Notes: a model not told the origin generated them from the sequence alone. Counted from the stretch's first letter, positions 1,393 through 61,232 are shown. The stretch is DNA of 64,000 bases from an uncultured Methanosarcinaceae archaeon (GCA_963847185.1 CAWJYV010000008.1:608001-672000), one strand, 5' to 3'. Numbers and translations: made by a program.

Positions 1393-1428
1393 ACTGGAAA
1401 AGTCAGGATAGATCAGGAGGAAGACCCT

Positions 1429-14398: not shown

Positions 14399-14417
14399 AA
14401 AATATCACATCCCAAAC

Positions 14418-15638: not shown

Positions 15639-16417
15639 CAGATTTCCTCCGCAAAACGTGGTTCTAATTTGGAAAAGATAATGTATCCTACAAGGAGGAA
15701 GACTATTGATGAAAAAAACATGAATAAAAGGTCTTCTGTTTTAGCTGGAGAAGAGTAAATAATAGTATCCCTTGCAGAAATAAGAATCCGTGCGATTGGA
15801 TTCAATAGGACAAATTTCTGTAGATTTTGAGGAAATATGTCGAGGGTATAAAGTATAGGGGTTAAAAAATATCCAGCCTGCAAAAAGACCTGCCAGATAA
15901 ACTGCACGTCTCTGTAAAATACGTTCAAGGAGGAAAGCGCCAGAGAGACACCAAGCGAGAGAATAAACAGGAACAATAGGATAAGCGGTACATAGACCAG
16001 GTTGATTGAAATTGGTACCCTGAAAAATGCCATAAACATTATGAATATCAGAGACTCGAAAATGCTCATGAGCAAAGCTGTAATGCATGAGGAAATAACA
16101 AAGATATCTCTGGGGAAGTAAATTTTCTTAACCATACTTGGTTTTCCCACTATGGAAAACATTCCGATTGTAGTTGCTCTGCTAAAAAAACTCCACAAAA
16201 TGATTCCAAGAAGCAAAAACAGCTGGTAGTATTCTACCTGGACCCTCATCAAGTTAGAAAAAACAACATATAGAACCAGGAGCATAAGCATGGGTTCTAG
16301 AAGAGACCAGAAATAGCCCAGTATAGAGTTTTTATATCTTAATTTAAATTCGCTCCATGCCAGTTGCCAGATAAGATTCCTATAGCCATAGAGCTCTTTT
16401 AAGTGTTTAAAGGTCAT
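15638..16417 (-). CDS. wzm: Polysaccharide ABC exporter permease
   Basis: [31 protein letters not shown] and NP motifs; about 6 TM. Confidence 0.92.
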
Positions 16418-17490: not shown

Positions 17491-17933
17491 TTTTTAAATT
17501 ATTTCACTTTAAATTTAAATTGGGATTTATATGTGTTTCGAAGCGATTTTTAATTTGAACAGAAACTCAGATATTTATGCTAAATTTACTGTTAAATTTA
17601 CTGCTAATATGTTTTATTGATTCAAATAAAAACCCGGCTATCTGCCTGCTTAATGGAGTTAAGTTTAATATCCAGATTTCAGTAAGCAAATTTTTTCGCT
17701 TATGAGGTCACCCGGTCTCATCCCCATTAAGGCACTTAACAAGAAAAATCCTGAGACAACCATTCTGATCTTACAGAGTAATAATAACTTAACATAAAAT
17801 TAACAAAAATTTGGCATATCAATTAGTTTATATAGATTAAGAAGATATGCTTTTTGCAAAGGGAGCTACGTTTTTAAGATAAATAAAGTCCTATCTCCTG
17901 CAACATAAGAATTGGGAGCAATAAGGTGATTCC

Positions 17934-18956
17934 TTGACAAAGGTCGCACTGATCACAGGCATAACAGGCCAGGACGGCACATATATTTCAAAACTTTTAT
18001 TAGATAAGGGGTATGTAGTCCATGGAATAAAAAGAGAATCTTCTACCAGAATAGAAGATAAGGAGAAAGAACAGAAAAATCCGAATCTTCATATTCACTT
18101 CTGTGATATGGCCGATTATTCAAAGCTCATCAGAATTATTCAAGAAGTCTGTCCGGACGAAATCTATAATCTGGCAGCCCAAAGCAATGTACAGGTTTCT
18201 TTTGACAGACCGGAATACACAGCAGAAATTAACGCCTTTGGTACTCTCCGTCTTCTTGAAGCTATACGCACCCTTGGTCTTGAAAAGAAAACGAGGTTTT
18301 TTCAGGCTTCTACCGGAGACTTATTTGGGAACTCACCTGAAATTCCGCAAAATGAAAATACTCCCTTTAACCCTTTAAATCCTTATGCGGTGTCCAAACT
18401 ATATGCTTACTGTATTGCAAAAAACTACCGTGAAGCTTATAAAATGTTTATCTGCAATGGTATCCTGTTTAATCATGAATCTCCAATAAGACCAGATAGT
18501 TTCGTTACGAGAAAAATTACCAGATCTGCAGTCAGAATAAAAAAAGGGCTCCAGGAGAAACTCTACCTTGGGAATCTGAATGCAAAAAGAGATTGGGGAT
18601 TTGCAGGAGATTATGTTGAAGCCATGTGGCTTATGTTACAACAGGATAAACCGGATGACTATGTAATTGCAACAGGTGAAACACATTCAGTACAGGAAAT
18701 GGTGGAGTTTGCATTCAAAGAAGTCGGGATCGAGATAGAATGGGAAGGAGAAGGGATTGAGAAAAAAGGGAGAAATGCTGCAACAGGTAAGATCCTGATT
18801 GAGGTGGACCCTCAGTTTTACAGGCCTCTTGAGTCAAATTTATTGGTAGGAGATCCTTCAAAAGCCAGGAAAAAACTCGGATGGGTACCCAGGGTAAATT
18901 TTGAAGAACTTGTCAAATTGATGGTCAAAAATGATCTGGAATTAGTGAAATGTTAA
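17934..18956 (+). CDS. gmd: GDP-mannose 4,6-dehydratase paralogue with altered active site
   Basis: GITGQDG, YxxxK and FNHES motifs; QASTGD in place of QASTSE. Confidence 0.8.
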
Positions 18957-18986
18957 AAAATTTATTTGCTTAATTGTGTGGTAAAA

Positions 18987-20015
18987 ATGTCTAAAGTCGC
19001 ATTACTTACAGGTGTAACCGGTCAGGATGGAGCATACCTTGCCGAATTCTTACTAAACAAAGGGTATACTGTGCACGGGATGCACAGAAGATCGTCTCTG
19101 AGCAACACAGGACGAATAGATTGTCTCCTGAAAGACCCTCATCAAAAAGATTGTAAATTTTTTTTGCATTACGGAGACCTGACAGATTCAGCAAATGTTA
19201 TCAGACTTATCAAGAATATAGAGCCTGATGAAATTTACAACCTTGGAGCTCAGAGCCATGTCCAGGTTTCTTTTGAGACTCCGGAGTACACTGCAAACTC
19301 GGACGGGATTGGAGCCCTTCGTATTCTGGAAGCAATAAGAATTCTTGAACTTGAGGACAAATCGAAGTTTTATCAGGCATCAACCAGTGAATTATTCGGG
19401 AAAGTACGTGAAGTCCCCCAAAAAGAAACTACTCCTTTCTACCCCCGGAGTCCCTATTCAGTAGCTAAACTGTATGCTTACTGGATTGCGATAAACTATC
19501 GTGAAGCCTATAATATGTTTACCTGCAACGGTATCCTGTTTAATCATGAGTCTCCTTTGAGAGGAGAAACTTTCGTTACCAGAAAGATTACAATAGCCGC
19601 ATCAAAGATAAAGAAAGGGCTTCAGGAGAAACTGTACCTTGGGAATCTCAATGCTCAGCGCGACTGGGGATTTGCAGGAGATTATGTAGAAGCCATGTGG
19701 CTTATGTTACAACAGGATAGGCCCGATGATTATGTCGTAGCTACAGGGGAAACTCATTCAGTTAGAGAATTTACCGAACTGGCTTTTAAAGAAGCAGGTA
19801 TTGACCTCGAATGGGAAGGCGAAGGAGTTAACGAGATTGGAAAGGATATAAACAGCGGAAAAGTACTCGTCGAGGTTGATCCGATGTTTTACAGACCTAC
19901 AGAAGTAGATCTGTTGATAGGAGACTCTTCAAAGGCCAGGGAAAAACTTGGATGGAAGCCAAAGGTAAGTTTTGAAGAACTGATCAGAATGATGGTAAAA
20001 AGTGATATGAAATAA
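18987..20015 (+). CDS. gmd: GDP-mannose 4,6-dehydratase
   Basis: [31 protein letters not shown] and [14 protein letters not shown] motifs; ATG at 18987. Confidence 0.95.
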
Positions 20016-20123
20016 ATCCGGTGGAAGGGGGTAGAGATATTTTTGTGAAAAATTTTTTAAATTGGAAATAAAATATAGAAACATTTAGAAATAAATGTGA
20101 GTAAAAAAATAAATGTGAGTAAA

Positions 20124-22649
20124 ATGGAGAAGTCAGAAAAAATCAGTCAGAATAAAGATGCACGAAAAAAAGATCCGAAAGAGATCCTCGTGCTTGGAGC
20201 TGCTCTCTTAGCTGGCTTCATCATGCGCATGCTCTCGTATGCCGCAGTTACTGCAAACGGGAGCATAACCTTCCCTGGATATGATGATTATTATCATATG
20301 CGGCGCATTCTTTATGCAGTTTCAAGTTTTCCCAATTCACTTAATTTCGATTCTTACCTCAACTATCCTTATGGCTATGAAATCGGATGGCCTCCTTTTT
20401 TTGACCTGTTAGGTGCTCTGCTTGCAAAAATTCTCGGAGGAGGGCAGCCTGATCCGCATACTATCGAATTTGCAGGAGCATTACTGCCGGTACTTCTCGG
20501 AACTCTGACAATAATCCCACTGTATATAGCAGCCAGCTCGGTTTTTGACAAAAAAACCGGACTTCTCGGGGCTTTCATTTTCGCAGTCATTCCAGCCCAT
20601 TTATACGTATCCCGTTTTGGAGCGGCTGACCATCACGTAGCAGAGGCACTCCTATCTACGGCAGCTTATGCATGTTTTATACTTGCCTTGAAAATTGCAA
20701 ATAAAAAAAATCTTTCCTTAAATTCGCTTAAGAACATATCAGAAAAAAGAGACCTTATAACTTCTCTGGTTCTTGCAGCGGTTTCAGGGCTGTTTCTTGC
20801 ACTCCTAATTTACACATGGGTAGGAGCTCCTGTTTTTGTAAGTTTTATCGTATTGTATGCATTCATACAGACCACAATCGATCTCAAAGCTGGAAAAGAA
20901 TCCGATTACCTATTTATCTGCTCAATTACATGCATTGTTTCAACACTTCTGTTTACTATTCCCCTGTCAGCCGGATCAGTGCGACCAGGTCTGGAAATGA
21001 GTGCAGTATACATTTCCTGGTTTCAGGTATTTTATGTGCTCAGCATGCTAGTTGGAGCTTTCCTCCTCTGGGGGCTTTCTGGATCTGTCTCAAAAAAGGC
21101 TCTGGACTGGAAGTTTTATCCTGGAATCTTAATTCTGGTTTTAGGTGCAGGTATTCTCTCTCTGCGAATTTTTTCCGCAGAATCCTACTCTTTTGTGATG
21201 GAAGGTCTGAGATTCTTCACAGGAAAAGGGGAATATATAGGAACCATTTCCGAAGCTGTGCCTTTATTTTTGACAGGACAGGGAAATCTTACTTTCGGAC
21301 CGGTACTGGGAAGTTTTGGACTCTGCTTTATTGCAGCTTTGATAGCTTTCTTCCTGCTCGGACTTGAGTGGAAAGGTGAGAACTCAAAGCCAGAAGGAAT
21401 ATATCTCCTTTTATGGACAGCCTTTTCCGCATATCTCGTTCTTTCGCAGAGGCGTTTCTCGTATCTTTTTTCAGTAAATGTTGCAATTCTTACCTCCTAT
21501 TTACTCTGGATTTTGTTTGAATCGCTCAATTTTGAAACTGAAGTAAGGAACCTGTTAAAACTCGGAAAAAAGAATCAAAATAATAAAACTACTCATCAGG
21601 TTTCAAAAGAAACAAAATTAAAGACAAAGTCAAAAGTAAAAGCAAAGAATGAATCAGCAAAGAATGAATTAACAAAGGATAGGTTACTAAAGAACAGATC
21701 AGGATCGAAAAGTAATCAGAACCCTGATTACTTCAAAATTGTTTCATCACTGGTTCTTTTAGGGCTTGTCTTTGTACCCTGTATATGGGCAGGAGTTGCT
21801 TTTGCAAAAAGTACGAGTTCGATTGATGGAGCCTGGCAGGACTCTCTGCAATGGTTAGAAACTTCCAGCCCCGAGACTTCTTATTACCTTCAGCCTTCTC
21901 AAACTCCAGAGTATGGAGTTCTGAGCTGGTGGGACTATGGAAACTGGATCGTATATCTCTCAAAAAGGCCTGCAGTCTCGAATAATTTCCAGACAGGCGT
22001 TGAAGATTCTGCACATTTTTTCATAACTGACTCAGAACAGGAAGCAAAAGCTATCATCGAAAAACTCAAGGTAAAATATGTGATAACCGATACACTGATG
22101 GCAGGTGGCAAATTTTCGGCTATTTCTGAACTTGCAGGAAAAAACGTCACGGATTATTTTGATGTTCAAACAGTCAAAGGAAAAACGGGTCTTCAGACGG
22201 TTGCAACTCCGAAAAATGCCTTTATGAATACTGAAGTATATAAGCTTCAAGAACTTGACGGCTCAAATCTCGGAAACTTGCGGCTCATTCACGAAAGTGT
22301 AGCAAATAGCACGGAGAATAAAAATAACAAAGATAATACTGTAAAGGTATTCGAATATGTTTCAGGAGCTAGGCTTTCAGGTACTGTAAATCCAAAAGAG
22401 ACTGTTACTGCGACACTTGAATTGCGCTCAAATACAGGTAGAGGATTCACATATCAGAACAAAGCGGCGGCAGATGAAAAAGGTTTATTTGAAATAACCG
22501 TGCCTTATTCGACAGAAAATACTGGAACCGAAACCACTGCTACGTCAACCTATTCCATTAGCTCAGAAGAAAACGTTACAGCAACAGGAATCCAGGTAAA
22601 AGAAAGTGATGTTCTGAACGGGAACACAATAGAAGTAAACAATTCCTGA
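20124..22649 (+). CDS. aglB: Oligosaccharyltransferase AglB (STT3 family)
   Basis: DDYYH, DHH, TISE and WWDYG motifs with many TM helices; the upstream GTG start lies in a short tandem duplication, so ATG 20124 is preferred. Confidence 0.93.
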   Translation: MEKSEKISQNKDARKKDPKEILVLGAALLAGFIMRMLSYAAVTANGSITFPGYDDYYHMRRILYAVSSFPNSLNFDSYLNYPYGYEIGWPPFFDLLGALLAKILGGGQPDPHTIEFAGALLPVLLGTLTIIPLYIAASSVFDKKTGLLGAFIFAVIPAHLYVSRFGAADHHVAEALLSTAAYACFILALKIANKKNLSLNSLKNISEKRDLITSLVLAAVSGLFLALLIYTWVGAPVFVSFIVLYAFIQTTIDLKAGKESDYLFICSITCIVSTLLFTIPLSAGSVRPGLEMSAVYISWFQVFYVLSMLVGAFLLWGLSGSVSKKALDWKFYPGILILVLGAGILSLRIFSAESYSFVMEGLRFFTGKGEYIGTISEAVPLFLTGQGNLTFGPVLGSFGLCFIAALIAFFLLGLEWKGENSKPEGIYLLLWTAFSAYLVLSQRRFSYLFSVNVAILTSYLLWILFESLNFETEVRNLLKLGKKNQNNKTTHQVSKETKLKTKSKVKAKNESAKNELTKDRLLKNRSGSKSNQNPDYFKIVSSLVLLGLVFVPCIWAGVAFAKSTSSIDGAWQDSLQWLETSSPETSYYLQPSQTPEYGVLSWWDYGNWIVYLSKRPAVSNNFQTGVEDSAHFFITDSEQEAKAIIEKLKVKYVITDTLMAGGKFSAISELAGKNVTDYFDVQTVKGKTGLQTVATPKNAFMNTEVYKLQELDGSNLGNLRLIHESVANSTENKNNKDNTVKVFEYVSGARLSGTVNPKETVTATLELRSNTGRGFTYQNKAAADEKGLFEITVPYSTENTGTETTATSTYSISSEENVTATGIQVKESDVLNGNTIEVNNS

Positions 22650-51260: not shown

Positions 51261-51983
51261 ATGAATTTATTGTGGAAAGACATGTGCCCTATAGAGTTAA
51301 AATTACCATCTCCACTTCCTCTTGAAAATATACCTGATTTATGGAAACAAAATGAGATTCTAATTTTTCTGATTGACCTTAACAGTTATAACATTCTGAG
51401 TACTGAGCACCTTGACAAGACCGAAAAAGAGCATCTGGAAACATTAAAAACAAACTATTTTAAAAAAAGATATATAGTCTCCAGGATGGTTCTAAAAAAT
51501 ATTGTGATGTATATCCAGGGCGATATATTAAAAGGACAGTCTCTTTCTGATATAGGCACATATAATGATGAATACGGAAAAGTTTGCATACGGAACCATA
51601 GAGAGTTGAACATATGCATTTCATACACAGGGAACATTGCTTCCCTCGCAATATCGAAAGTTGAAGTCGGGATTGATATAGAGCTTAAAAGATTGATCCC
51701 CCCTGGAAATATGTCAAAGTATCTGTGCATTACAGCCTCAGAAGCAGAAGATTTCGGAAACGAGCCTGACTTATTGAGAATATGGACTCTCAAAGAAGCA
51801 TACTGTAAATTTTCGAACAGAACTATGTTATCTACTCTTATCAGAAAACTGGATCTAAGTGGTGTGTTTCATTCAAGCTTTACTTTGAACGACAAATATA
51901 TACTTTCTGTAATTAGCGATACAAACTCACATTCCCTCAACATAAGTTGTCTGTCGAAGATAGAATTATATGAAGATTCTTAA
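51261..51983 (+). CDS. Sfp-type 4'-phosphopantetheinyl transferase
   Basis: YGK, ISYT (SH/SY position), VGIDIE and WTLKEAYCK motifs. Confidence 0.85.
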   Translation: MNLLWKDMCPIELKLPSPLPLENIPDLWKQNEILIFLIDLNSYNILSTEHLDKTEKEHLETLKTNYFKKRYIVSRMVLKNIVMYIQGDILKGQSLSDIGTYNDEYGKVCIRNHRELNICISYTGNIASLAISKVEVGIDIELKRLIPPGNMSKYLCITASEAEDFGNEPDLLRIWTLKEAYCKFSNRTMLSTLIRKLDLSGVFHSSFTLNDKYILSVISDTNSHSLNISCLSKIELYEDS

Positions 51984-52247
51984 CATTTGAATAAAATATA
52001 CAAACTTACCTTATAATGTAAAGCTCTCTAAAGCAACAGATTGACTTCTCACACGTCTATCAGCAACTCTTTTCTAGGCTATCTTGCTTCTGTTTTTTTG
52101 GAATATTTATTTTATACTTATAAAAAATCCTTCAAATTATTTATATAGTTGAATAACATAATTAGTTTTGGGGCTTTCAGATGATAACGGACAGAGTGCA
52201 CTATTCACAATCGATCCGCTAAACGAAAGCAAAGGGGATAACGATAT

Positions 52248-52493
52248 ATGGAACCGATAAAAGATTGTATAATTGATTATTTGAAGGCTAATTCTTTTAT
52301 GGATAAGGACGCTCACGTCAGTGACGTTGACTCTCTTACTCAGAATGGCATTGTAGATTCTATTGGGCTGCTTGAACTTATGGATTATATCTGTGAAAAA
52401 TATTCTATCGAAATTCCAGAAGACATGCTAACTCCAGAGAATTTTGACACACTACAGGGAATTACCAATATGATAGGTAAACTGGCGAAGTGA
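52248..52493 (+). CDS. Acyl/peptidyl carrier protein
   Basis: 81-aa acidic protein with GIVDSIGLLEL (Ppant Ser) and IEIPEDMLTPENFDT. Confidence 0.92.
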   Translation: MEPIKDCIIDYLKANSFMDKDAHVSDVDSLTQNGIVDSIGLLELMDYICEKYSIEIPEDMLTPENFDTLQGITNMIGKLAK

Positions 52494-52509
52494 AACGAAG
52501 TGAAGAAAT

Positions 52510-53988
52510 ATGCGACTTGATGCGTATATTACTGAATACGCCAGAGAAACTCCTCAAAATATTGCCCTGGAAGAGGGCAAAAATTCAATTTCCTATAGCT
52601 GTCTTGATAAAGACATAAATATCATTGTTTCGCCCCTGATGAATTTTAAACAGTGCAGATTTGCAGTACTGGCAGAATCTGGCATACAGTATGTAAAATT
52701 ACTTATGGCAGTATATAGGTCAGAAAATATCGCAATACCTCTGCCGATAGAATTTCCTAAGTTCAGTCTTGAGCGAATACTTGATTCTGCATATGTCAAA
52801 AATATAATTACGACTGAGACGCAATACTCAAGGTTTGGGGAGATTTTTTTTGAGCGTTTTGGAACAGTGATCATTGTTTCGGGAGATGCTTCAGTAAAGG
52901 TTCTAAGAAATAAAATCGAAGTTGAAAATAATAACCCGGAACTGAGGCTGGTCCTGTACACGTCGGGTACAACAGGCACCCCAAAAGGGGTAATGTTGAG
53001 TGACAGAAACCTTGCAGTAAATGGAGAATCAATAATAAAAGTTATTGGAATCACTTCTAAAGATAAAGGGGCCCTGATAATATCCCCACATCATGCTTTC
53101 GGGAATTCTATAATCAATTCCCACCTGATGGCTGGAGGCTCTATCCGAATCGGAAACATGAATTTTATAGACTCGGTTTTCAATCTTATTGAGTCAAAAG
53201 TATCAATTTTCTACGGAGTGCCAAGCACCTATCGTATGCTTCTCAAGTATCCGGACAGATTCAAAAAAGCCTTTAGTAGTGTCAGGACCGCTGCTTCCGC
53301 AGGTGGAGGCATGGACAGGACAATTGTAAAGGAAATTCGGGGCCTGGTTCCTGGAATTGAGATTCTACCAATGTACGGGCAAACAGAAGCTACTGCAAGG
53401 CTTGCCTATGTGCCAGCAGAAGATGTTGATAAATTCTTAGACACAATAGGAAAAGCTATTCCTGGAGTTACTCTGGACGTTTTTGATTCTGAGTGCAGGC
53501 CAGTTGGGTCAAACATAACAGGGGAACTGGTCGCCAGAGGAGACAATATCCTGTTAGGCTACCTTGACGATGAAATCGCTACTAAAAAGAGGATCATAAA
53601 CGGCTGGCTTCATACAGGAGATCTCGCACAAAAGCTGCCAAATGGGTATATAAGGCTGCTGGGGCGCAAGGATGACCTTATAAAAATTGGGGACCATCGG
53701 GTGAATCCCAGAGAAATTGAGAGGCTCATTGAAGAGAATAATGATGTTTCCAAGGTTTTCGTTGTGCCTGTATCCCACGAACTTATGGGAACTGCAATCA
53801 GCCTTATGGTCATACCTGCAGAAAAGACAGAACTTGAGAGTCTATTTGCCTTCTGCAGGAAGAGCCTGCCAGCTTACCTGTGCCCGAGAGAAATACTGTT
53901 CATCGATCATCTTCCATTGAGCGAGAACGGGAAAATATCCAATCGATCCATAATAGAGGAATACAATCATGTCAAAGCTAGTGTGTAA
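52510..53988 (+). CDS. Stand-alone adenylate-forming (ANL) enzyme / acyl-ACP ligase
   Basis: YTSGTTGTPKG, MYGQTEA, LHTGDL, GRKDDLIK..HRVNPREIE and LPLSENGKI motifs. Confidence 0.92.
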   Translation: MRLDAYITEYARETPQNIALEEGKNSISYSCLDKDINIIVSPLMNFKQCRFAVLAESGIQYVKLLMAVYRSENIAIPLPIEFPKFSLERILDSAYVKNIITTETQYSRFGEIFFERFGTVIIVSGDASVKVLRNKIEVENNNPELRLVLYTSGTTGTPKGVMLSDRNLAVNGESIIKVIGITSKDKGALIISPHHAFGNSIINSHLMAGGSIRIGNMNFIDSVFNLIESKVSIFYGVPSTYRMLLKYPDRFKKAFSSVRTAASAGGGMDRTIVKEIRGLVPGIEILPMYGQTEATARLAYVPAEDVDKFLDTIGKAIPGVTLDVFDSECRPVGSNITGELVARGDNILLGYLDDEIATKKRIINGWLHTGDLAQKLPNGYIRLLGRKDDLIKIGDHRVNPREIERLIEENNDVSKVFVVPVSHELMGTAISLMVIPAEKTELESLFAFCRKSLPAYLCPREILFIDHLPLSENGKISNRSIIEEYNHVKASV

Positions 53989-55021
53989 AAAGTGTGTTCT
54001 GGATTCGGATATTCCAGGTATAACTTTTAATAAGGAAACAGGGCTATGCCATTTCTGTGAGACATATGCTCCCCTTTCTGTTCAGGAAAAAAATGAATAT
54101 CTGACAAAAATTGAGGAGCTTTTTAAGGAATACCGGGGGAAAGGTACCTATGATGTAATTTATGCCCTTTCCGGGGGGAAAGATTCTTCGTACACACTTT
54201 ACAAGCTCAAAAAAGACTATCCCTTCCTGAAGGTGCTGGCTGTCCAGTTTCAAAATGGATTCACCTCCGAAGGTGCGGTAAAAAATGCAAAAAAGATGTG
54301 TAAGATAACAGGCTCCGATTATTTTCAGCTGACTATGGAAAAGGAAATTCTTTATGAGACTTTCCGGAAGGCGGCAGAATCTTATGATGCATTTCCGAAG
54401 TTTGCTAAATACCGGGCGAGTGATATCTGCAATACCTGTATTACTATCATCAAACAGAAACTGATAGAACAGGCAATTGTTCACAAAGCACCTTTTATTG
54501 TATTTGCTTTTACAGGCGGACAGTCTCCAAACCCAATCATTAACCTTTCACCCAACTTTATACAGTGGTCCAGAAGCCTGTTTGAGAAACAGCTTGAAAA
54601 AATAGGTATTAACGATAAAGATGAACTCTTCCTCATCAAAAAAGAGATCGTTGAAAATATGGGGGACTCTGCCCTAAGTATTCTGCATCCTCTCTGTCTA
54701 TGGGAATACAGTGAAGATAAAGTAGTGGATACACTTTTGAAGATTGGATGGGAGCAGCCTAATATTAATGACAGTAATTCAACCAATTGTACCTTGAACG
54801 CTTTCGCATGCTATAACCACCTGGAAAAATACGGGTTCCATCCATACGCCTTTGATACGGCAGGACTTGTGCGAAGCGGGGAAATGTCCAGGGAAGAAGG
54901 GTTTGAAAAAATCAATCAGGAATTATCAAGACCATTAATAGAAGAAGCTGCAAAGAAGCTTAAAATGAATGTTAAGAGCTTGAATGTAAAAGACTCTCAT
55001 AAAATACTAACGACAATTTGA
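53969..55021 (+). CDS. Cys-rich N-type ATP pyrophosphatase (AANH; WbuX- or YcfA/CtaC-like)
   Basis: CKKC..CHFC N-terminus, SGGKDS PP-loop, CNTC, STNC and HPY..LVRSG.MSREE; overlaps the ANL gene by 20 nt. Confidence 0.8.
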   Translation: MSKLVCKKCVLDSDIPGITFNKETGLCHFCETYAPLSVQEKNEYLTKIEELFKEYRGKGTYDVIYALSGGKDSSYTLYKLKKDYPFLKVLAVQFQNGFTSEGAVKNAKKMCKITGSDYFQLTMEKEILYETFRKAAESYDAFPKFAKYRASDICNTCITIIKQKLIEQAIVHKAPFIVFAFTGGQSPNPIINLSPNFIQWSRSLFEKQLEKIGINDKDELFLIKKEIVENMGDSALSILHPLCLWEYSEDKVVDTLLKIGWEQPNINDSNSTNCTLNAFACYNHLEKYGFHPYAFDTAGLVRSGEMSREEGFEKINQELSRPLIEEAAKKLKMNVKSLNVKDSHKILTTI

Positions 55022-55096
55022 GCTGGAAGTACAGTTCACTAATTTAACAATAGACATTCGTATAAAAATCGTTCCAATAATTATGGGGGAAAAACT

Positions 55097-56089
55097 ATGC
55101 AGGTAGCAAAAGAAATGAACATAAACATAATGGAAGAGCTGACTAGAGACATTGGAAGTGTAGCTCTAAATCTAAGAAGTTTTATTAAAGACCAAATCGT
55201 AGGTTTTAAGAAAAAAGGAGCAGTGTTAGGAGTATCCGGCGGAATTGATTCGGCTGTAGCTCTTACCCTTTGCGTGCAGGAGTTGGGGAAGGAAAATGTT
55301 TACGGGATCCTGCTGCCTGAGAAAGAGTCGGCTCCTTCAAGCAAAGTTCTGGGTGCAGAAATTTGCGAAAGTCTTGGTGTAGAATATGAGGAAGTTCCTA
55401 TCTCTCCAATTCTTAAATCACTTAACATTTATAAGAAGAAAGATGACCTTATAAAAAGGGTCTGTCCGGAGTATAACCCCAGGATACATAAAACCTCGCT
55501 GGTTCTTCCTGATTTCCTTGAGCAGGGCCTTTTGAACGTTCCTTACATTCGATTGATGAAAGGTGATGAAACTGTTGGGAAGTACAGGTTGAAGGCAAAT
55601 GACTATCTGGAACTTATCGGGTTACAGGGTGTCAAGCAGAGGTCCAGAATGATGGTTCAGTATATGTATGCCGAACAGATGAACTATGTAGTTTGCGGCA
55701 CAACAAATAAAACCGAGCTGGTCCTGGGTCAGTTTGTGAAATACGGAGACGGAGGTGTAGATCTCGAACCCCTTGCTGATTGTTATAAGACACAGATCTA
55801 CGCTCTTGGTAGACATTTAAAAGTCAACGAAGAGATTATGAAGCGTCCTCCAAGTGCCGATACCTGGAGCCATTATACAACTGACCAGGAATTCTACTGG
55901 CGGATGCCTATAAATATTATGGATCAGTTGCTGTATTCATTTGAACATAAATTACCTTGTAGTGTAATTGAAAAGAATACAGGCCTCCCCAGAGACAAGA
56001 TAGAAAAAACTAGAAGGCACCTCGGAAGAATAAAGAGTACAACAGAATATATTAGGTCCACTCCTCCGGTTTATTATCTTGACAGATAA
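55097..56089 (+). CDS. nadE: NadE-like amide synthetase (divergent NH3-dependent NAD synthetase paralogue)
   Basis: GVSGGIDS, GTTNKTE, FVKYGDGG, YKTQIY and PPSAD motifs; large central insertion. Confidence 0.75.
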   Translation: MQVAKEMNINIMEELTRDIGSVALNLRSFIKDQIVGFKKKGAVLGVSGGIDSAVALTLCVQELGKENVYGILLPEKESAPSSKVLGAEICESLGVEYEEVPISPILKSLNIYKKKDDLIKRVCPEYNPRIHKTSLVLPDFLEQGLLNVPYIRLMKGDETVGKYRLKANDYLELIGLQGVKQRSRMMVQYMYAEQMNYVVCGTTNKTELVLGQFVKYGDGGVDLEPLADCYKTQIYALGRHLKVNEEIMKRPPSADTWSHYTTDQEFYWRMPINIMDQLLYSFEHKLPCSVIEKNTGLPRDKIEKTRRHLGRIKSTTEYIRSTPPVYYLDR

Positions 56090-56305
56090 GCTGTAGAAGA
56101 CGAATCTTGAAGGTGAAGTAATAAATCGTAGAGATTTACAGCTTTTCCTTCAAAAAATAACTTTTTTAAGCTAACATTCCGAGTTGAATCGGAGAAAAAA
56201 CGGTTTTAGATTATTTTTATACTTGTTTTGGAATGCAGAAAAGACAAAATTAATTTAACAAGATTGTATAATTAACAATACTGTACAAAATATTAAAGTG
56301 TGATT

Positions 56306-57439
56306 ATGAATACCAAGGTTTCTATTGTTCGCTGTAGCGATTATTCAAAAGCAAAAGATGCAATTAGAGAGTCGCTTAATTTGATAGGCGGCTTTGAGAA
56401 GATCATATCTCCTGGAAGCCGCGTACTGCTCAAACCCAATGTACTTGCCGCTCGGCCTCCAGAGGATGCTGTCACAACTCATCCGGCAGTAGTTTCTGCA
56501 ATGTGTGAACTGATTTTGGAGATTGGCGGAATTCCGGTTATAGGAGATGGGTCAGGAATTGTAGGGTCAGGATCTACAAACACTTCTAAAGCGTTTAAAA
56601 TATCGGGAATTGAAGATGTCGCGTCCAGTTGCGAGGTAGAATTAATCAACTTTGAGACCTCTGGTTATATTGAAGTCGATGTTCCCAATGCCAGGGAATT
56701 CCAGCGTCTGCACATAGCAAAAGCCGTACTCGAAGCAGATGTAATAATTTCACTTCCAAAGCTCAAGACCCATGAGCTCACACTCTACACGGGAGCTGTA
56801 AAAAATTTCTTTGGTACTATTCCTCAGAAAAACAGAAAACAGGCTCATTTCCTGGAAGACCGTGATCGCTTTGGAAATGCAGTTGTCGATATATACTCAA
56901 TCGTCAAACCTCATCTCGCAGTCATGGACGGGGTGCTTGGAATGGAGGGCAACGGCCCTTCAAACGGTGCGCCTGTTTTTGCAGGTGTGATCATGGCAAG
57001 CTATGACTGTGTATCCCTGGATATTGCGGCTTCCGAACTCATAGGATTTGACCCCTTGAAGGTCCCTACAAATAAAGCTGCTCTCTCAAGAGGGTTTGGA
57101 ACCGAACATCCCGAGATTGTAGGAGTACCACTGGACAGTTTAAAGGTCAAGTTTAAAGAGCCAGAAGGTGGAATTACTGCCCATGTGCCACATTTCCTTA
57201 TGAGGGTCCTCCGAAAGCAGTTAACTGTAAAACCTTTTATCAACACTTCAACCTGCGCCTTTTGTAAAGCCTGCGTTTTAAACTGTTCAGCACATGCTAT
57301 TGAGGAAGCGGGAAAAACACTTAAAATTAACCAAAAAAAATGTATCCAGTGCTATTGTTGTCGGGAACTTTGTCCCAATGATGCAGTAGAAATAAGGAAA
57401 TCCTTTATATTGAGACTTGTAACTAGAATTAAAAGCTAA
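56306..57439 (+). CDS. DUF362 protein with C-terminal 2x[4Fe-4S] ferredoxin domain
   Basis: LLKPN, TTHP, PKLKTH, GAVKN and GMEGNGP motifs; CAFCKAC...C and CIQCYCCRELCP. Confidence 0.88.
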   Translation: MNTKVSIVRCSDYSKAKDAIRESLNLIGGFEKIISPGSRVLLKPNVLAARPPEDAVTTHPAVVSAMCELILEIGGIPVIGDGSGIVGSGSTNTSKAFKISGIEDVASSCEVELINFETSGYIEVDVPNAREFQRLHIAKAVLEADVIISLPKLKTHELTLYTGAVKNFFGTIPQKNRKQAHFLEDRDRFGNAVVDIYSIVKPHLAVMDGVLGMEGNGPSNGAPVFAGVIMASYDCVSLDIAASELIGFDPLKVPTNKAALSRGFGTEHPEIVGVPLDSLKVKFKEPEGGITAHVPHFLMRVLRKQLTVKPFINTSTCAFCKACVLNCSAHAIEEAGKTLKINQKKCIQCYCCRELCPNDAVEIRKSFILRLVTRIKS

Positions 57440-57564
57440 AAAAAGATTTATTTTAAAAAAATGACATCCTAAAAACTTATTAATAAATCCGAAACTGTGG
57501 GAAGTTATTTATTCTTTAAAGAGTAATGGAAAGTTAGGAATTATATATAAAGGGGGGCACTGCC

Positions 57565-58098
57565 ATGAGTGAAGTAATATCTAACAGAGATAAAGTAACT
57601 TTTAATGAGGTAGCCGATCATTATCATAGTAACAAACTCCTTTTTGGACTAAAATATTTTAAGAACTGGGTTCTGGAAAGACTGGCTTCATGCGTTCCTG
57701 TTCCTACCTGGAGGGTAAAATTTCACAGAATGAGAGGAGTTAATCTCGGGAAGAATGTTTATGTAGGTTATGATGTTGTTTTTGATCGCATTCATCCTGA
57801 ATTAATTACGGTAGGAGATTATTCAGAAATTGGGGATAGATGCATCCTCTCTGCACATTCGAGAGGCAGTTTAACTACAAGACAGGCTTATCCGAGAAGT
57901 ATGGAACCTATCATAATTGGACGTGGAGTATCTGTTAATCCTGGATGCATAATTACTCAAGGGGTCGAGATAGGAGATAATTCCATAATAGGAATAGGAT
58001 CAGTAGTTACCCGTGATATTTCTCCAAATAGTCTTGCTCTTGGCTACCCTGCCAAAGTTGTTAAAAAACTTGAGGGTGTAGGCGAGCTTCAAACCTGA
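57565..58098 (+). CDS. Hexapeptide-repeat (left-handed beta-helix) acyltransferase
   Basis: GVNLGKNVYVG, LSAH, GVEIGDNSIIGIGSVVTRD and GYPAKVVK motifs. Confidence 0.88.
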   Translation: MSEVISNRDKVTFNEVADHYHSNKLLFGLKYFKNWVLERLASCVPVPTWRVKFHRMRGVNLGKNVYVGYDVVFDRIHPELITVGDYSEIGDRCILSAHSRGSLTTRQAYPRSMEPIIIGRGVSVNPGCIITQGVEIGDNSIIGIGSVVTRDISPNSLALGYPAKVVKKLEGVGELQT

Positions 58099-58358: not shown

Positions 58359-58943
58359 TCATTTATCGGATTTGTATTTGAATTCGAAACCAAGCTTATT
58401 CAGAGCAAAAAGTGCCATCATTATCACAAAGAAAACAGCAAATACCGATACAAAAGACTTTAAGAGATAGAGCATGAGCCCATTTTCTTGAAAACCCGAA
58501 TCCATCAAAGAGGACAATTTTATTGTTCCATCGTATATCGGATATAAGTAATTAATACCGTTTTCACTAACGTCATCAAGTAAGAGATGAGTCAGGAAAG
58601 CCGCTTCTCCAAATAGACCCAAATATATTGCTTTGTCAAGTTTCCGGTATGCAAGATAACCCACAAGCGTTCCAAATATTATTGCAGAGGAACTAAATAA
58701 TAATGAATGCGTTGGGATCGGGCCAGCCCAGCAATGCCCTAAATTACCGTTTACGAATATATTATAAACGGCCATAATATCCGGAAATAGAGTGCATAAA
58801 CTGCCTATAAACAGAAGCAATAGGAGTGAGGGCATGTCCCTTAATGAGAGCTCCCCGCGAAAAAGAGATCTTATAACCGCATAGACAGCTACTGCGCTGA
58901 TGCAGAACACAAAGAATAAAACATGCGCAACTGGATAGGGCAT
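58359..58943 (-). CDS. Membrane metal-dependent hydrolase (YdjM-like)
   Basis: N-terminal H, PD, THS and THLLLD motifs in TM helices. Confidence 0.8.
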   Translation of the reverse strand: MPYPVAHVLFFVFCISAVAVYAVIRSLFRGELSLRDMPSLLLLLFIGSLCTLFPDIMAVYNIFVNGNLGHCWAGPIPTHSLLFSSSAIIFGTLVGYLAYRKLDKAIYLGLFGEAAFLTHLLLDDVSENGINYLYPIYDGTIKLSSLMDSGFQENGLMLYLLKSFVSVFAVFFVIMMALFALNKLGFEFKYKSDK

Positions 58944-59068: not shown

Positions 59069-60130
59069 TTAGAGAGGGATTAATTCTACAACCAGTCCAT
59101 CTTCAAAGGGATGTCTTTCAACAATGAAAATCCTGGTCTCAGAATGCTGCAGCTCTTCTTTTAACTCATCTTTTAACTCTTCCAGTAACCACCAGGCGAT
59201 TTCAATTTTCCCATCCTTTATTTCAAACAGTTCTGAGGGAATTTCCATATTTTTCAGAATATCGTCTGCAAGTCCTATGTTTCCACCTTCAATGACCCCA
59301 TAGACAAGAGTCCCGTCTTCAGTGATTTCATCAAACTCTCTTGCAGTATTCTTTGCAATCCGCTGAAACCTTTTGCGGAGCTGGACTGCATCCTTATAGG
59401 TTGAGGAACAAAAGTGTATTTTTTTGCCTGCTGAAAAAGCGTTCTTAGCGTAGTTACAGGAACCTGAAGCTGCGCTTGATGTGTCTGATTCGAGGAAGAA
59501 GCCGTTTTTAAGAAGAGCTTTTGAATTATTATCCGAAAATTCCAGTTCATTCAGGTTAAGGAAAACTCCCATTTCTGCTGCAAAAGCTGCGACATTTTCC
59601 ACTCCTTCAAGAGACGGAATTTCAATTCCAGCTTCAATTCCAAGCTCTTTTGCAATTTGAATGGAACTTTTGTACGGACTGCTCTTTAGCCCTGTCCAGC
59701 TTTCCTGGGGTGGATGGAAACGAATTTCATCAAGGCCGGCATCGGCAAGTTTTTCTAGAGTCTGTCTCTCAGGAGCCAGAGAAGTGTAAAGATGGATGTG
59801 ATGTTCTTCTCCAAAAAATGATTTTAGAATTCTGATATAATGAAGAACTTTTTCTATTTTCAGAAGAGGCTCCCCGCCTGTAATCCCTGTCCCGAGTGCA
59901 TCCATAAGCTCAGCTTCTCTCAGCAAATCCTCATCGCCGTTTACGGCTCTTTCGTTTGCAAAAACAAGATCCTTTCCTCGCCTTTCATCAGAAAGTGGAC
60001 AGTAAAAGCAGCTTTTTGGGCAAAGGCCGGTTATAAAGAGCACCATTTTTGCTCCTTCCTGGCAGAGCCTGCAGCCTTCAGAAAGATAGCTGCAAAAAGA
60101 GCCGGTCTCATCTTGAGTGAACTTATCCAT
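59069..60130 (-). CDS. Radical SAM protein (conserved archaeal family)
   Basis: CPKSCFYC, ITGGEP, EIRFHP and LNELE motifs. Confidence 0.88.
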   Translation of the reverse strand: MDKFTQDETGSFCSYLSEGCRLCQEGAKMVLFITGLCPKSCFYCPLSDERRGKDLVFANERAVNGDEDLLREAELMDALGTGITGGEPLLKIEKVLHYIRILKSFFGEEHHIHLYTSLAPERQTLEKLADAGLDEIRFHPPQESWTGLKSSPYKSSIQIAKELGIEAGIEIPSLEGVENVAAFAAEMGVFLNLNELEFSDNNSKALLKNGFFLESDTSSAASGSCNYAKNAFSAGKKIHFCSSTYKDAVQLRKRFQRIAKNTAREFDEITEDGTLVYGVIEGGNIGLADDILKNMEIPSELFEIKDGKIEIAWWLLEELKDELKEELQHSETRIFIVERHPFEDGLVVELIPL

Positions 60131-60289: not shown

Positions 60290-60475
60290 ATGTCAGAAAA
60301 AAATGGATACGTCGTGGTTTTCGGCTGCAAAAGGTGCGGAAAATGCAGGGATATCTGCCCTGTAGGCGCAATCTACGAGGAAAACGAGCTTGCAAAAGTC
60401 AACCCGAAAAAATGTACTCTATGCATGAAATGCATCGATGAGTGTACGAATAGATCAATTATCTATATGGAATAA
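60290..60475 (+). CDS. 2x[4Fe-4S] ferredoxin
   Basis: CKRCGKCRDICP and CTLCMKCIDEC motifs. Confidence 0.85.
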   Translation: MSEKNGYVVVFGCKRCGKCRDICPVGAIYEENELAKVNPKKCTLCMKCIDECTNRSIIYME

Positions 60476-60476
60476 A

Positions 60477-61232
60477 ATGAAACAAAGCTATTGGGATAAG
60501 GTGCATAAAGTGGAAAAAATTTCGGTTAAGGGAAAAATCATAGATATTACAATTCCTATTTCTCCTTTTATGCGAGTTTTCCCCGGAGACCCGAAACCCT
60601 CAATAAAGAAAATCTGTACTCTTGAAAAAGAAGGTTTCGCTCTATCCGATTTAAGACTGGGAAGCCACACCGGCACCCATGTTGATGCCCAATCTCATGT
60701 TTTAGACAATGGTCTGCCTGTTGACAAACTTGAACTTGAAAATCTAATGGGCATGGCACTTTTACTGGATTTTACATCAATTGCAGGTGCACTGACCGCT
60801 GACATCCTTGAAAAAGCCCTGCAGAATACAGGAGTCTCCGAAGATATCCCAATTCTTCTTCTGAAAACGGAAGGTACTTCCAGAGAGCTGAAAGGCATAG
60901 AAGATATTGATTTTCAGAGCATGAAATCAGAATTCCAGAATGAAGAATACGAGGAAGGAGAGACTTGCCCTGCATACCTTGATGAAAGTGCAGCATCATG
61001 GATTCTTAAGAAAGGGTTTAAAACCGTAGGAATAGACAGTTTTTCCATAGATAATTTACATTCCGAAAGCCTGCCGGTTCACCATTTGCTGCTTTCAAAC
61101 AACGTGAATATAGTGGAATGCCTTGAACTCAGTTCGGTAGAAGCGGGAATTTATTTCTTCCTGTGCTTGCCTCTGAAAATAGAAGGTTGTGACGGCGCGC
61201 CAGCAAGAGCTTTATTGATCTCTTATCCTTGA
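60477..61232 (+). CDS. Cyclase-family (kynurenine formamidase-like) metallohydrolase
   Basis: FPGDP, HTGTHVDA, VGID.FSID, HHLLL and GCDGAPARA motifs; start at 60477 or 60510 is uncertain. Confidence 0.85.
   Translation: MKQSYWDKVHKVEKISVKGKIIDITIPISPFMRVFPGDPKPSIKKICTLEKEGFALSDLRLGSHTGTHVDAQSHVLDNGLPVDKLELENLMGMALLLDFTSIAGALTADILEKALQNTGVSEDIPILLLKTEGTSRELKGIEDIDFQSMKSEFQNEEYEEGETCPAYLDESAASWILKKGFKTVGIDSFSIDNLHSESLPVHHLLLSNNVNIVECLELSSVEAGIYFFLCLPLKIEGCDGAPARALLISYP

Follow-up and report, generated by a model that had tools for sequence, protein, structure and literature searches.

The ORF listing of the window (the whole 64,000-nucleotide stretch of DNA analysed here) confirmed seven open reading frames at 51261..58098, all on the plus strand and followed by a convergent gene for a membrane protein (Table 1). 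The spacing given in a first-pass annotation of this DNA was right: the genes of the acyl carrier protein (ACP) and the ANL enzyme are 16 nt apart, and those of ANL and AANH share 20 nt. Wider gaps lie between PPTase and ACP (264 nt), NadE-like and DUF362 (210 nt) and DUF362 and LbH (125 nt), and because of the first of these the PPTase gene probably forms its own transcription unit. RNA contigs from four runs of one sludge study (95-99% alike), which stem from a related strain and may include DNA carry-over, cover ACP, ANL, AANH, NadE and LbH and bridge the ACP-ANL and ANL-AANH junctions, although a single transcript is not provable from them. As had been annotated, family scans found no ketosynthase, condensation or thioesterase domain in the cluster. 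A profile search of the whole genome gave no match to the condensation domain PF00668 and one weak match to PF00109 (25.9 bits), located about 250 kb from the cluster.

Table 1. Genes of the cluster and the adjoining convergent gene, with their family matches.
Feature	Position	Strand	Length	Family match
PPTase, Sfp-type 4'-phosphopantetheinyl transferase	51261-51983	+	240 aa	ACPS 26.5 bits
ACP, stand-alone acyl carrier protein	52248-52493	+	81 aa	PP-binding 20.4 bits
ANL adenylate-forming enzyme	52510-53988	+	492 aa	AMP-binding 174.5 bits
AANH, NASAT-fold PP-loop ATP pyrophosphatase	53969-55021	+	350 aa	TIGR03573 126.6 bits
NadE-like PP-loop enzyme	55097-56089	+	330 aa	NAD_synthase 178.5 bits
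DUF362 + ferredoxin protein	56300-57439	+	379 aa	DUF362 209.2 bits + Fer4
LbH, left-handed beta-helix hexapeptide acyltransferase	57565-58098	+	177 aa	Hexapep 38.2 bits
YdjM-family membrane protein, convergent with the cluster	58359..58943	-		PF04307 40.4 bits

The first-pass annotation had tied its reading to the genes being syntenic in relatives, and they are. Among 24 related loci in genome contigs, all seven genes occur in the same order in 14, all from Methanosarcina, and since the order is kept in these 14 loci the association of the genes is more than chance. The part from PPTase through ACP, ANL and AANH to NadE is retained in two further loci of the 24, from Methanococcoides, while contig ends cut six of the 24. 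Two loci with full flanks, L003 and L011, gave no PPTase match at the thresholds used, and L003 also gave no NadE match. Of 34 sampled Methanosarcina genomes, 32 carry the cluster. Across the family, the gene was not found in 9 of the 16 sampled genera, and some genomes hold two to three copies.

The PPTase passes the Pfam threshold for PF01648 (25 bits) and scores 45.8 bits on the AusB-like model NF047349; the GIDIE and WTLKEA motifs are present in the translation, in agreement with the motifs noted before. The ACP stays 0.4 bits under the gathering threshold of PF00550 (20.8 bits), scores 19.2 bits in the genome scan, also under that threshold, and reaches 42.8 bits on the AmcB-type ACP model NF058660, below its cut-off of 80. 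Its D37-S38 pair, which contains the serine pointed out earlier, is invariant in 83/83 sequences (the window's ACP and 82 homologues). Within the genome (completeness 99.8%), the PPTase is the sole ACPS match and the ACP the sole PP-binding match, so that the description as a dedicated pair holds. This is unusual for archaea: the accessible portion of one paper places ACP machinery in a few unrelated archaea only, probably acquired by transfer (PMC3533463). The PPTase diverges faster than its neighbours, with 43-61% identity in other species compared to 64-89% for the neighbouring genes, and with 89% compared to 96-99% in a near-identical locus (L001).

The ANL enzyme possesses the AMP-binding core, the C-terminal subdomain (AMP-binding_C, 47 bits), the A3 motif and the catalytic Lys of its superfamily. 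Its core motifs, claimed from the sequence before, are confirmed by the invariance of T151, S152, G153, T155, K159, G160 and K475 in 24 sequences. The top NCBIfam matches are TIGR03098 (207 bits) and models resembling fatty-acid-CoA ligases, all under their cut-offs, and the score on TIGR01733 (176.5 bits) is below the required 317.4. At the A4 position the enzyme has H-A-F-G, compared to F-D-x-T/S in eight NRPS adenylation domains; it lacks the Asp that binds the alpha-amino group and so does not qualify as an NRPS adenylation domain. These residues suggest that ANL is an ACP-loading ligase for a carboxylic acid other than an alpha-amino acid, since the A4 Asp is absent. Of the substrates proposed in the first-pass annotation, an acid or an amino acid, the acid thus stands and the alpha-amino acid falls, while the remainder of its interpretation, i.e., a carrier-protein cluster with a PPTase/ACP pair, two PP-loop enzymes and a glycan as one option, is retained.

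The two ATP pyrophosphatases of that interpretation are indeed two PP-loop enzymes beside ANL and ACP, but AANH can be described more specifically. It carries an N-terminal tetracysteine Zn ribbon, a PP-loop and a CxxC...C triad formed by C154, C157 and C274. In 57 sequences C6, C9, C27, C30, G69, S73, C154, C157 and C274 are invariant; D72, S73, C157 and C274 occur in 123/123 sequences and C154 in 121/123, with Ser at the C154 position in the L044 fusion. The only NCBIfam match is WbuX (TIGR03573), with a score under the cut-off of 203.2 bits; distant relatives reach about 150 bits and a second Methanosarcina paralogue 184.9 bits on the same model. Foldseek with the AF2 model (pLDDT 94.7) placed the NASAT structure 8wex on top (TM 0.67-0.69, E 2e-13), followed by NcsA, TtuA and LarE, and AANH shares the NASAT fold over its whole length, including Zn ribbon and PP-loop. 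In addition, hhalign aligned the C154xxC157 motif with the CxxC of the LarE-type protein encoded in this genome (probability 95.9%), and the AANH profile matches 8cnz, 6scy and 5mko; on PF00733 it gives 17.9 bits. Relatives exist as ANL-AANH fusions (P0126, P0137, L044) and within NRPS modules, where the domain is inserted between A-core and A-sub, before the T domain. The tree places the NRPS-embedded domains in a clade of their own (100*), apart from the archaeal clade. The Cys triad, of the CtaC/LarE/TtuA type, suggests that AANH may be a [4Fe-4S]-dependent, CtaC-like enzyme.

The second PP-loop enzyme is a member of family NF002048 (PRK00876), on which it scores 472.9 bits at a cut-off of 313, and contains about 60 residues (110-170) that solved NadE structures lack. 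We rejected it as the NAD synthase of the organism: a canonical NadE is encoded elsewhere in the genome (C2:15114-15839; PF02540 292 bits), which passes NF010587 (332 bits) and fails NF002048 (183.5 bits), and the enzyme of the cluster is a paralogue belonging to the latter family. NadE-like partners in 8/8 tested distant loci, L044 and pSymB pass NF002048 as well. By analogy to NAD synthase, the enzyme may amidate a carboxyl group.

The DUF362 protein exceeds the PF04015 threshold of 24, and the same polypeptide also contains a 2x[4Fe-4S] ferredoxin domain (Fer4 families); on NF052623 the protein reaches 183.5 bits, under the cut-off of 500. It is found in the loci of Methanosarcina as well as in L113 and L115. 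LbH passes the Hexapep threshold (27) and reached no specific NCBIfam equivalog, with 64.6 bits on the WcaF family (NF007797), below the cut-off; its identity across other Methanosarcina species is 82-89%. The resemblance to WcaF makes LbH a candidate for a transfer step. In L105 and L110, which are second copies at new locations, and in L115, the YdjM gene is again next to LbH, and it is possibly an eighth member of the cluster; we propose that it and the DUF362-ferredoxin protein are lineage-specific helpers. Several of these observations would also suit a different acyl target, namely an isoprenoid lipid, a dolichol-linked carrier or a protein, or the production of a cofactor. LbH scores 60.9 bits on the model of heptaprenylglyceryl-phosphate O-acetyltransferase (NF058585), a gene for the cis-prenyltransferase UppS lies 1.3 kb upstream of the cluster on the opposite strand, the YdjM membrane protein co-travels with the cluster, and, going by the available part of the source, Pfam clan CL0471 holds both DUF362 and LarA (PMC11770544), with a LarE-like gene occurring in the genome. 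However, LbH remains far under the model's cut-off of 300, and the UppS adjacency is lost in the relocated copies and sister genera (L105, L110, L112, L113, L115). The nine sampled genera in which the gene was not found and the occurrence of two to three copies in some genomes also fit poorly with a core cofactor, and we regard such a target as highly unlikely.

A wider comparison was based on metagenome loci, the best 80 of 510, of which 25 were annotated; as these were picked for long flanks or NadE, they are not a random sample. Among the 21 distant loci with long flanks (from the best 80 of 510), ANL was found within 5 kb of AANH in 20, ACP in 14 and the NadE-like enzyme in nine; DUF362 occurred in none of the 21, LbH in two and PPTase in one. 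The part that is conserved consists of ACP-ANL-AANH, to which the NadE-like enzyme may be added, and DUF362, LbH and PPTase are not kept in distant loci. This lack of conservation, together with gaps wide enough for separate promoters (264, 210 and 125 nt), is what might be expected if the seven genes were neighbours without a common function. Nevertheless, gene order is retained across genera, duplicated copies show that the module relocated as one unit, the core partners are still found together where AANH identity is down to 31-40%, and gene fusions exist, so that a chance neighbourhood is disfavoured and, in our view, scarcely credible.

The surroundings of the module favour the glycan substituent among the options listed in the first-pass annotation. 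Polysaccharide genes or an exosortase context were found in 18 of the 25 annotated distant loci (best 80 of 510), with EpsH in five; seven of the 25 (L047, L062, L068, L069, L073, L075, L077) have no polysaccharide genes. Extra copies in genome G110 adjoin two GT2 genes and a Wzx-type flippase, L039 adjoins a flippase, L115 a polysaccharide deacetylase and DUF354, and L113 a disaggregatase-repeat protein. The window's own cluster contains no glycosyltransferase or flippase according to the family scans, and the nearest glycan genes, an AglB island, are about 29 kb away. The missing glycosyltransferase would be compatible with a free small molecule, e.g., a thioamide-bearing metabolite, metal binder or signal, which is released and not bound to a glycan. 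Antibiotic biosynthesis is known to employ enzymes of the CtaC type, and thiotemplated genes, in many cases NRPSs, are found close to about 75% of CtaC homologues (PMC6772006). The AANH family includes the NRPS-embedded domains, and L077, which is on the tree branch holding the archaeal clade (support 85), contains a ketosynthase, a sortase, a second ANL and an ABC transporter. A released product is nevertheless distinctly unlikely, as release enzymes (thioesterase, condensation or other) are missing from the cluster and the genome has no condensation domain, the NRPS-embedded domains group separately from the archaeal clade, and stand-alone forms occur mainly in polysaccharide loci (the 18 of 25 among the best 80 of 510). 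The presence in nearly all genomes of the genus is also more typical of an envelope function than of an accessory metabolite.

The reading we prefer, to which we give slightly less than an even chance and which draws on analogy to characterized enzymes, is a thiotemplated acyl-tailoring cassette whose acyl group, destined for a surface glycan, would first receive an amide and then probably a thioamide. Gene content, synteny, membership in families and motifs, the status of the NadE-like enzyme as a paralogue, and the genomic context are direct observations. We infer each chemical step, as well as the order of amidation and sulfur transfer, the sulfur itself and the acceptor, as follows. The Sfp-type PPTase would convert the genome's only ACP into the holo form, and ANL would adenylate a carboxylic acid, not an alpha-amino acid, and load it onto the ACP as a thioester. 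The NadE-like enzyme would adenylate a free carboxyl of the substrate to give an amide. AANH would then adenylate the amide oxygen (or a carboxyl oxygen) of the ACP-bound substrate, and sulfide on a [4Fe-4S] cluster at C154, C157 and C274 would replace the oxygen, leading to a thioamide (or thioacid), as CtaC does. The finished acyl group would pass to a cell-surface glycan or a lipid-linked precursor, in Methanosarcina probably via LbH.

It is the Cys motif of AANH that points to the sulfur step, and the same cassette and glycan target could also be envisaged with no sulfur involved. AANH would then, like WbuX/NASAT, use ammonia to convert an amide to an amidine (or a carboxylate to an amide), the triad would be a structural metal site and the product would be an acyl group bearing an amide or amidine. 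To our knowledge, amidine formation is the sole characterized chemistry of the NASAT fold. NASAT is the best whole-length structural match of AANH and WbuX its only NCBIfam match, and nitrogen installers recur around the module: besides the NadE-like enzyme in nine of the 21 long-flank loci, AsnB occurs in eight and a class-III aminotransferase in three of the 25 annotated loci (all from the best 80 of 510), and a HisF-like gene lies near the module in L082. Moreover, the 25 annotated loci (best 80 of 510) yielded neither a sulfur-carrier nor a desulfurase gene, although the cluster of CtaC likewise has none. On the other hand, AANH scores below the WbuX cut-off, its triad CxxC aligns with [4Fe-4S] sulfur insertases, and the window's cluster has no HisH/HisF pair. 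The near-invariant triad also lies outside the conservation given for NASATs in the accessible portion of the literature, and 8wex has Asp opposite C274. We therefore consider chemistry of this kind possible but doubtful.

A broader form of the sulfur-based glycan reading is that Methanosarcina and the many bacteria whose polysaccharide loci contain the related module decorate a surface glycan with a carrier-assembled acyl group bearing a thioamide or thioacid, made by the NadE-like enzyme and the Fe-S variant of the NASAT fold. We rate this generalization as rather unlikely. If true, it would provide the first glycan substituent with sulfur in place of oxygen and the first CtaC-type chemistry beyond antibiotic pathways, and it would define a functional ACP pathway in a methanogen for the first time.

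The cluster shares features with several known systems. LarE (T. maritima, M. maripaludis), TtuA and NcsA combine PP-loop and CXXC-C motif as does AANH, and in LarE(Tm) this motif holds the sulfur-transferring [4Fe-4S] cluster, according to the available part of the source (PMC9283937); however, they have only the PP-loop core in common with AANH (TM 0.32-0.39) and act on nucleotides or tRNA, not on carrier-bound acyl groups. The likeness to NASAT/WbuX (LpNASAT, 8wex) extends to the fold, the Zn tetracysteine ribbon, the SGGKDS PP-loop and the occurrence in polysaccharide loci. AANH differs in its score under the family cut-off and in the extra Cys triad, whose C274 faces an Asp in the Legionella enzyme, and family scans detected no HisH/HisF partners of NASAT in the window's cluster. 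We know of no NASATs that are partnered with ACP and ANL or fused to adenylation domains. In bacterial NASATs, only the Zn tetracysteine is reported as conserved in the accessible portion of PMC10607449.

CtaC from the closthioamide pathway of Ruminiclostridium cellulolyticum likewise has a stand-alone carrier protein and an ANL-type loader as partners; its mutated [4Fe-4S] ligands are C154/C157/C284 and its PP-loop residues D77/S78 (PMC6772006), which by published residue numbers, not by alignment, resemble C154/C157/C274 and D72/S73 of AANH. With the PP-loop Asp-Ser, the CxxC...C motif and the association with a carrier protein and thiotemplated enzymes, AANH shares three features with this type. 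In contrast, the product of the closthioamide cluster is a free polythioamide antibiotic, made with ATP-grasp and protease-like ligases, whereas the archaeal cluster contains a NadE-like enzyme and no amide-bond-forming ligase, and its context is surface polysaccharide. The exosortase A (XrtA/PEP-CTERM) set comprises a TIGR03098 ligase, an ACP, TIGR03100/03101 hydrolases and a TIGR03108 amidotransferase. TIGR03098 is also the closest model for the ANLs of the module, with 372-508 bits in distant loci in addition to the window's 207, all under the cut-off, and L094 and L095 have Hydrolase-1/2-like and XrtA-amidotransferase-like genes nearby that score under the model cut-offs. The archaeal cluster differs from this set in having no exosortase A.

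The closest counterpart to the gene arrangement is the tight S. meliloti pSymB operon asnB-ACP(SMb20651)-ligase(SMb20650)-nadE, in which the ligase also follows directly 3' of a stand-alone ACP and nadE is of the NF002048 type. The homologous ACP (33% identity, E 1e-11), ANL (31%, E 4e-48) and NF002048 enzyme (NadE, 32%) are likewise adjacent in the archaeal cluster. As far as the source is accessible, the S. meliloti ligase acylates the neighbouring ACP in vivo and is no substitute for FadD, and AcpS was used as PPTase in the work cited there (PMC7232532). The pSymB operon has a glutamine-dependent AsnB but no NASAT-fold AANH, dedicated PPTase, DUF362 or LbH, while no Asn_synthase-family protein above threshold was found in the archaeal cluster. 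Because the cluster occurs in 32 of 34 genomes of the genus and a bacterial cassette exists whose ACP and ligase have been studied in S. meliloti, it is less singular than the first-pass annotation implied, and the Methanosarcina cluster appears to be the archaeal counterpart of a gene kit that is widespread in bacteria.

The seven co-oriented genes that a first-pass annotation had grouped into a carrier-protein cluster are borne out by the list of open reading frames and by Pfam and NCBIfam models, which agree with every label. The genes for the ACP and the adenylate-forming ligase (ANL) are spaced by 16 nt, and the latter overlaps by 20 nt the gene for the AANH, a PP-loop ATP pyrophosphatase with the fold of N-acetyl sugar amidotransferases (NASAT). 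The DS serine of the ACP is kept, D37-S38 being invariant in all 83 sequences compared (the window's ACP and 82 homologues), and both expected PPTase motifs are present. As had also been stated, Pfam and NCBIfam scans found no KS, condensation or TE domain in the cluster; across the whole genome (99.8% complete), PF00668 had no match and PF00109 a single weak one, about 250 kb away. We tentatively read the cluster as a thiotemplated cassette, all of whose chemistry we infer, in which a sulfur-bearing acyl group would be built on the ACP and put on a surface glycan.

Genes of the carrier-protein cluster and the evidence for their identity
Gene	Position	Strand	Evidence
PPTase	51261-51983	+	ORF; passes PF01648; motifs GIDIE and WTLKEA
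ACP	52248-52493	+	ORF; 0.4 bits under the Pfam gathering score; D37-S38
ANL	52510-53988	+	ORF; Pfam and NCBIfam
AANH	53969-55021	+	ORF; Pfam and NCBIfam; WbuX model 126.6 bits (cut-off 203.2)
NadE-like	55097-56089	+	ORF; NF002048, 472.9 bits
DUF362-ferredoxin	56300-57439	+	ORF; Pfam and NCBIfam
LbH (hexapeptide acyltransferase)	57565-58098	+	ORF; Pfam and NCBIfam

The PPTase and ACP genes are separated by an AT-rich gap of 264 nt, in which we read a T-run and a TATA-like stretch; because of these elements, the PPTase gene is probably transcribed alone, as its own unit. Scans of the window for sigma-70 promoters, the consensus of which is unsuited to archaea, and for terminators gave no excess of hits over chance (29 against 25.9 and 6 against 5.9 expected, respectively), and no tRNA genes were found within the window. 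In four sludge metatranscriptome runs of one study, RNA contigs 95-99% alike cover the ACP, ANL, AANH, NadE and LbH genes, and the ACP-ANL and ANL-AANH junctions are each bridged by single contigs; these stem from a related strain, may include DNA and do not by themselves prove a single transcript. The PPTase and most of DUF362 are without cover, an absence to which contig data give no meaning.

The gene order is syntenic in relatives, and all seven genes occur in order in 14 of 24 related loci from species genomes. Two Methanococcoides loci hold the PPTase, ACP, ANL, AANH and NadE genes only, a PPTase match is absent at the thresholds used from two loci with full flanks, and six loci are cut by contig ends. 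Beside this shared order, we give next to no credence to the view that the seven genes lie together without a common function. A survey of 151 sampled genomes of the family detected the AANH gene in the window's genus (32 of 34 genomes) and in four further genera (12/13, 5/6, 11/11 and 7/34 genomes); nine genera gave no match, and of the 70 positives three are weak paralogue matches. Among 301 genomes sampled across the phylum, 21 hold an orthologue at E <= 1e-40, namely that of the window, 19 of the 40 further family members and a single genome of another family (50% identity).

Some Methanosarcina genomes contain two or three copies of the cluster, the extra ones consisting of ACP-ANL-AANH with or without NadE, DUF362, LbH and the membrane-protein gene YdjM; no second PPTase was found with them. 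In three of these genomes (loci L105, 1783-5398; L108, 12125-15849; L110, 12131-15773) the extra copy is preceded by co-oriented genes for a CbiA/MinD-like ATPase and an IorA/IorB-type pair, a 2-oxoacid:ferredoxin oxidoreductase. This pair could be a clue to the acid loaded, e.g., an aryl- or alkyl-acetate; neither neighbour stands beside the copy in the window. At the syntenic copy of genome G110 (L109, 7944-9261), the ANL is matched as two overlapping tblastn pieces and the AANH match begins about 140 nt later than expected, so this copy may be frameshifted or decaying; the genome has two further ones. The window's AANH, although at the syntenic site, is 85% identical to the relocated second copy of genome G128 versus 77% to its syntenic copy, and these identities suggest copy exchange or replacement within the genus. 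A 2.5-kb contig filed under a Bacteroidales MAG (L019), with AANH and NadE-like proteins 80% and 74% identical to those of the window, is most likely a mis-binned Methanosarcinaceae contig.

Archaea are held to manage without acyl carrier proteins. The PPTase is the only ACPS match and the ACP the only PP-binding match in the genome, and the two are therefore a dedicated pair. The accessible text of an earlier study describes ACP machinery in a few unrelated archaea only, probably acquired from bacteria (PMC3533463). At the A4 position, the ANL has H-A-F-G in place of the F-D-x-T/S of the NRPS A domains compared, and hence lacks the Asp that binds the alpha-amino group. Its best models, all below cut-off, are fatty-acid-CoA-ligase-like ones and TIGR03098, that of an exosortase A-associated acyl-CoA ligase.

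The NadE-like enzyme is a paralogue, as the genome has a separate canonical NadE (262 aa, on another contig) which passes NF010587 and fails NF002048. The NF002048 model (PRK00876) is passed by the protein of the window and by those of L039, L044, L047, L062, L068, L078, L085, L089, L094 and L128, and thus by every NadE-like partner of the module tested, including eight of eight in distant loci. Relative to solved NadE structures, the enzyme carries an insertion of about 60 residues. The family name 'NAD(+) synthase' is thus probably misleading, judging from these model matches, and NF002048 behaves as a partner of carrier-protein modules rather than as a housekeeping enzyme.

Databases name the AANH only as 'hypothetical' or 'TilS/MesJ-like', also in M. 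acetivorans, the orthologue of which is UniProt Q8TRY2; a protein atlas returned nothing beyond generic names. An exhaustive search returned 2746 relatives at E <= 1e-3. Nine columns are invariant among 57 aligned sequences: C6, C9, C27 and C30, which form a Zn ribbon, G69 and S73 of the PP-loop, and C154, C157 and C274. When fused and NRPS forms are included (123 sequences), C157 and C274 are kept throughout and C154 is kept in 121. An AF2 model (pLDDT 94.7) matches over its whole length the Legionella N-acetyl sugar amidotransferase 8wex (TM 0.67-0.69), followed by the [4Fe-4S] enzymes NcsA, TtuA and LarE, which match in the PP-loop core only. In the alignment, 8wex has an Asp opposite C274, and in the accessible text of the paper on this structure the Zn tetracysteine is the sole feature described as conserved (PMC10607449). 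In hhalign, C154xxC157 falls on the CxxC of the genome's LarE-type protein; for LarE of T. maritima, the text available states that the CXXC-C motif binds a sulfur-transferring [4Fe-4S] cluster (PMC9283937). The AANH remains below the cut-off of the WbuX amidotransferase model. Among AANH enzymes, CtaC (Ccel_3258) of closthioamide biosynthesis is, to our knowledge, the only one with an established carrier-bound substrate. This thioamide synthetase has PP-loop residues D77/S78 and cluster ligands C154, C157 and C284 (PMC6772006), a parallel by motif and spacing, not by alignment, which we weigh as the most telling indication of what the AANH may do. That the pathway is identical but without sulfur, yielding an amide or amidine, appears to us rather unlikely, the whole-length match to an amidotransferase notwithstanding.

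Three candidate comparisons were discarded. The entries 8weu, 8wev and 8wex, taken from their consecutive PDB codes as one study of an ANL with a NASAT, are not such a set, 8wex being a stand-alone Legionella structure; L116, intended as an NcsA/TtuA control, is GuaA-like; and L119-L121 from sister genomes, intended as 'true WbuX' controls, carry the Cys triad too, so the contrast with bacterial NASAT is drawn from the 8wex alignment and paper only. The latter loci reveal a second NASAT-fold family in Methanosarcina (379-402 aa; L119, 585-1724; L120, 510-1718; L121, 317-1456) with Zn ribbon, PP-loop and CxxC...C triad (hhalign probability 99.95%; TIGR03573 184.9 bits, under cut-off), which was not found in the window's genome. 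In a tree built by a quick method, Methanosarcinaceae AANH proteins form a single clade (98*), sister to the Methanomicrobiaceae type (99*) and then to ANL-AANH fusions on long branches (97*), apart from an NRPS-embedded clade (100*) and a large EPS/exosortase group.

Such fusions are P0126, P0137 and an 826-aa ORF of L044, and in Paenibacillus and Brevibacillus NRPS modules the AANH is inserted between A-core and A-sub, before the T domain. This insertion site is the place of tailoring domains that act on tethered substrates. Within 5 kb of the AANH in 67 metagenome loci (AANH identity <60%), we found ANL in 42, ACP in 34 and NadE-like genes in 22; where both flanks reached 3 kb or more (21 loci), the counts were ANL 20, ACP 14, NadE-like 9, LbH 2, PPTase 1 and DUF362 0. 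Twenty-five of the 67 were annotated, 12 picked for NadE and 13 without NadE by flank length, and polysaccharide genes were present in 18 (9/12 and 9/13, respectively): Wzx, Wzy, Wza/Wzz, glycosyltransferases, Bac_transf, UDP-sugar enzymes and polysaccharide deacetylase-DUF3473. Exosortase EpsH occurred in five, AsnB in eight and a class-III aminotransferase in three. A lipid, protein or cofactor as the target seems very unlikely. L077 instead holds a ketosynthase, a second ANL, an ABC transporter and a sortase; release of the product as a small molecule seems unlikely. Downstream of the two extra copies in G110 come two GT2 genes, a 544-aa ORF and a Wzx-type flippase; L115 adjoins a polysaccharide deacetylase and DUF354, L113 a disaggregatase-repeat protein, and L039, a Methanomicrobiaceae-type locus, a flippase.

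The Methanosarcinaceae versions have DUF362-ferredoxin, LbH and YdjM as accessory genes. According to PMC11770544, DUF362 and LarA belong to one Pfam clan; a structure prediction of DUF362 from a shallow alignment of 12 sequences reached a pLDDT of 45.6. Downstream, at 60290-61232, a 'putative cyclase' gene (PF04199) is overlapped at its start by the ORF of a 61-aa 2x[4Fe-4S] ferredoxin. Most Methanosarcina loci keep this cyclase gene and the radical-SAM gene beside it (59069-60130, minus strand) in synteny with the cluster. An N-glycosylation island (8393-22649) lies upstream, at a distance of about 29 kb, and comprises an AT3 acyltransferase, four GT1-family genes (one an 803-aa double GT), a MetW-like methyltransferase, a Wzm/Wzt ABC exporter, two GDP-mannose-4,6-dehydratase-family genes and the oligosaccharyltransferase AglB; as a glycan link it is only circumstantial. 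At 280-3961, NifD-like, NifH-like and CobB/CobQ-like amidotransferase genes stand in a row, which we read as the coenzyme F430 genes cfbD, cfbC and cfbB.

In the preferred thiotemplated cassette, the PPTase would prime the ACP, the ANL would load an acid onto it and the NadE-like enzyme would turn a free carboxyl into an amide; the Fe-S AANH would then exchange oxygen for sulfur on the tethered substrate, and LbH or another transferase would pass the acyl group to a surface glycan. The first-pass reading was broadly right, except that the cluster is no singular oddity but the archaeal variant of a widespread cassette. The literature searched held no characterisation of the archaeal cluster; the supplements of the CtaC papers, which may list archaeal homologues, lay outside the search. 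We regard three points as new, namely that a carrier-protein partner comes from the Fe-S branch of the NASAT fold, that the NF002048 'NAD synthase' is a paralogue and that tractable methanogens possess a dedicated ACP system in complete form. The genus in which this PPTase-ACP-ligase system is conserved counts genetically tractable model methanogens among its members, and the role of the system is therefore directly testable. Three strands are joined here: the NF002048 subfamily, the cassette of ACP and ligase that bacteria have in polysaccharide and exosortase loci, and the Fe-S NASAT branch, which is large and also embedded in NRPS modules. The motif of this branch suggests that it inserts sulfur; if it does, cell envelopes would make use of thioamide or thioacid chemistry far more widely than is known.

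Among known systems, a search of plasmid records with the window's NadE-like protein matched 116 records, mostly Sinorhizobium pSymB, where the order is asnB, ACP, adenylate-forming enzyme and nadE. The proteins of this S. meliloti operon are homologous to those of the window's cluster, and the ligase of the operon, SMb20650, is reported to share a transcript with the ACP SMb20651, to acylate it in vivo and to be unable to stand in for FadD (PMC7232532).
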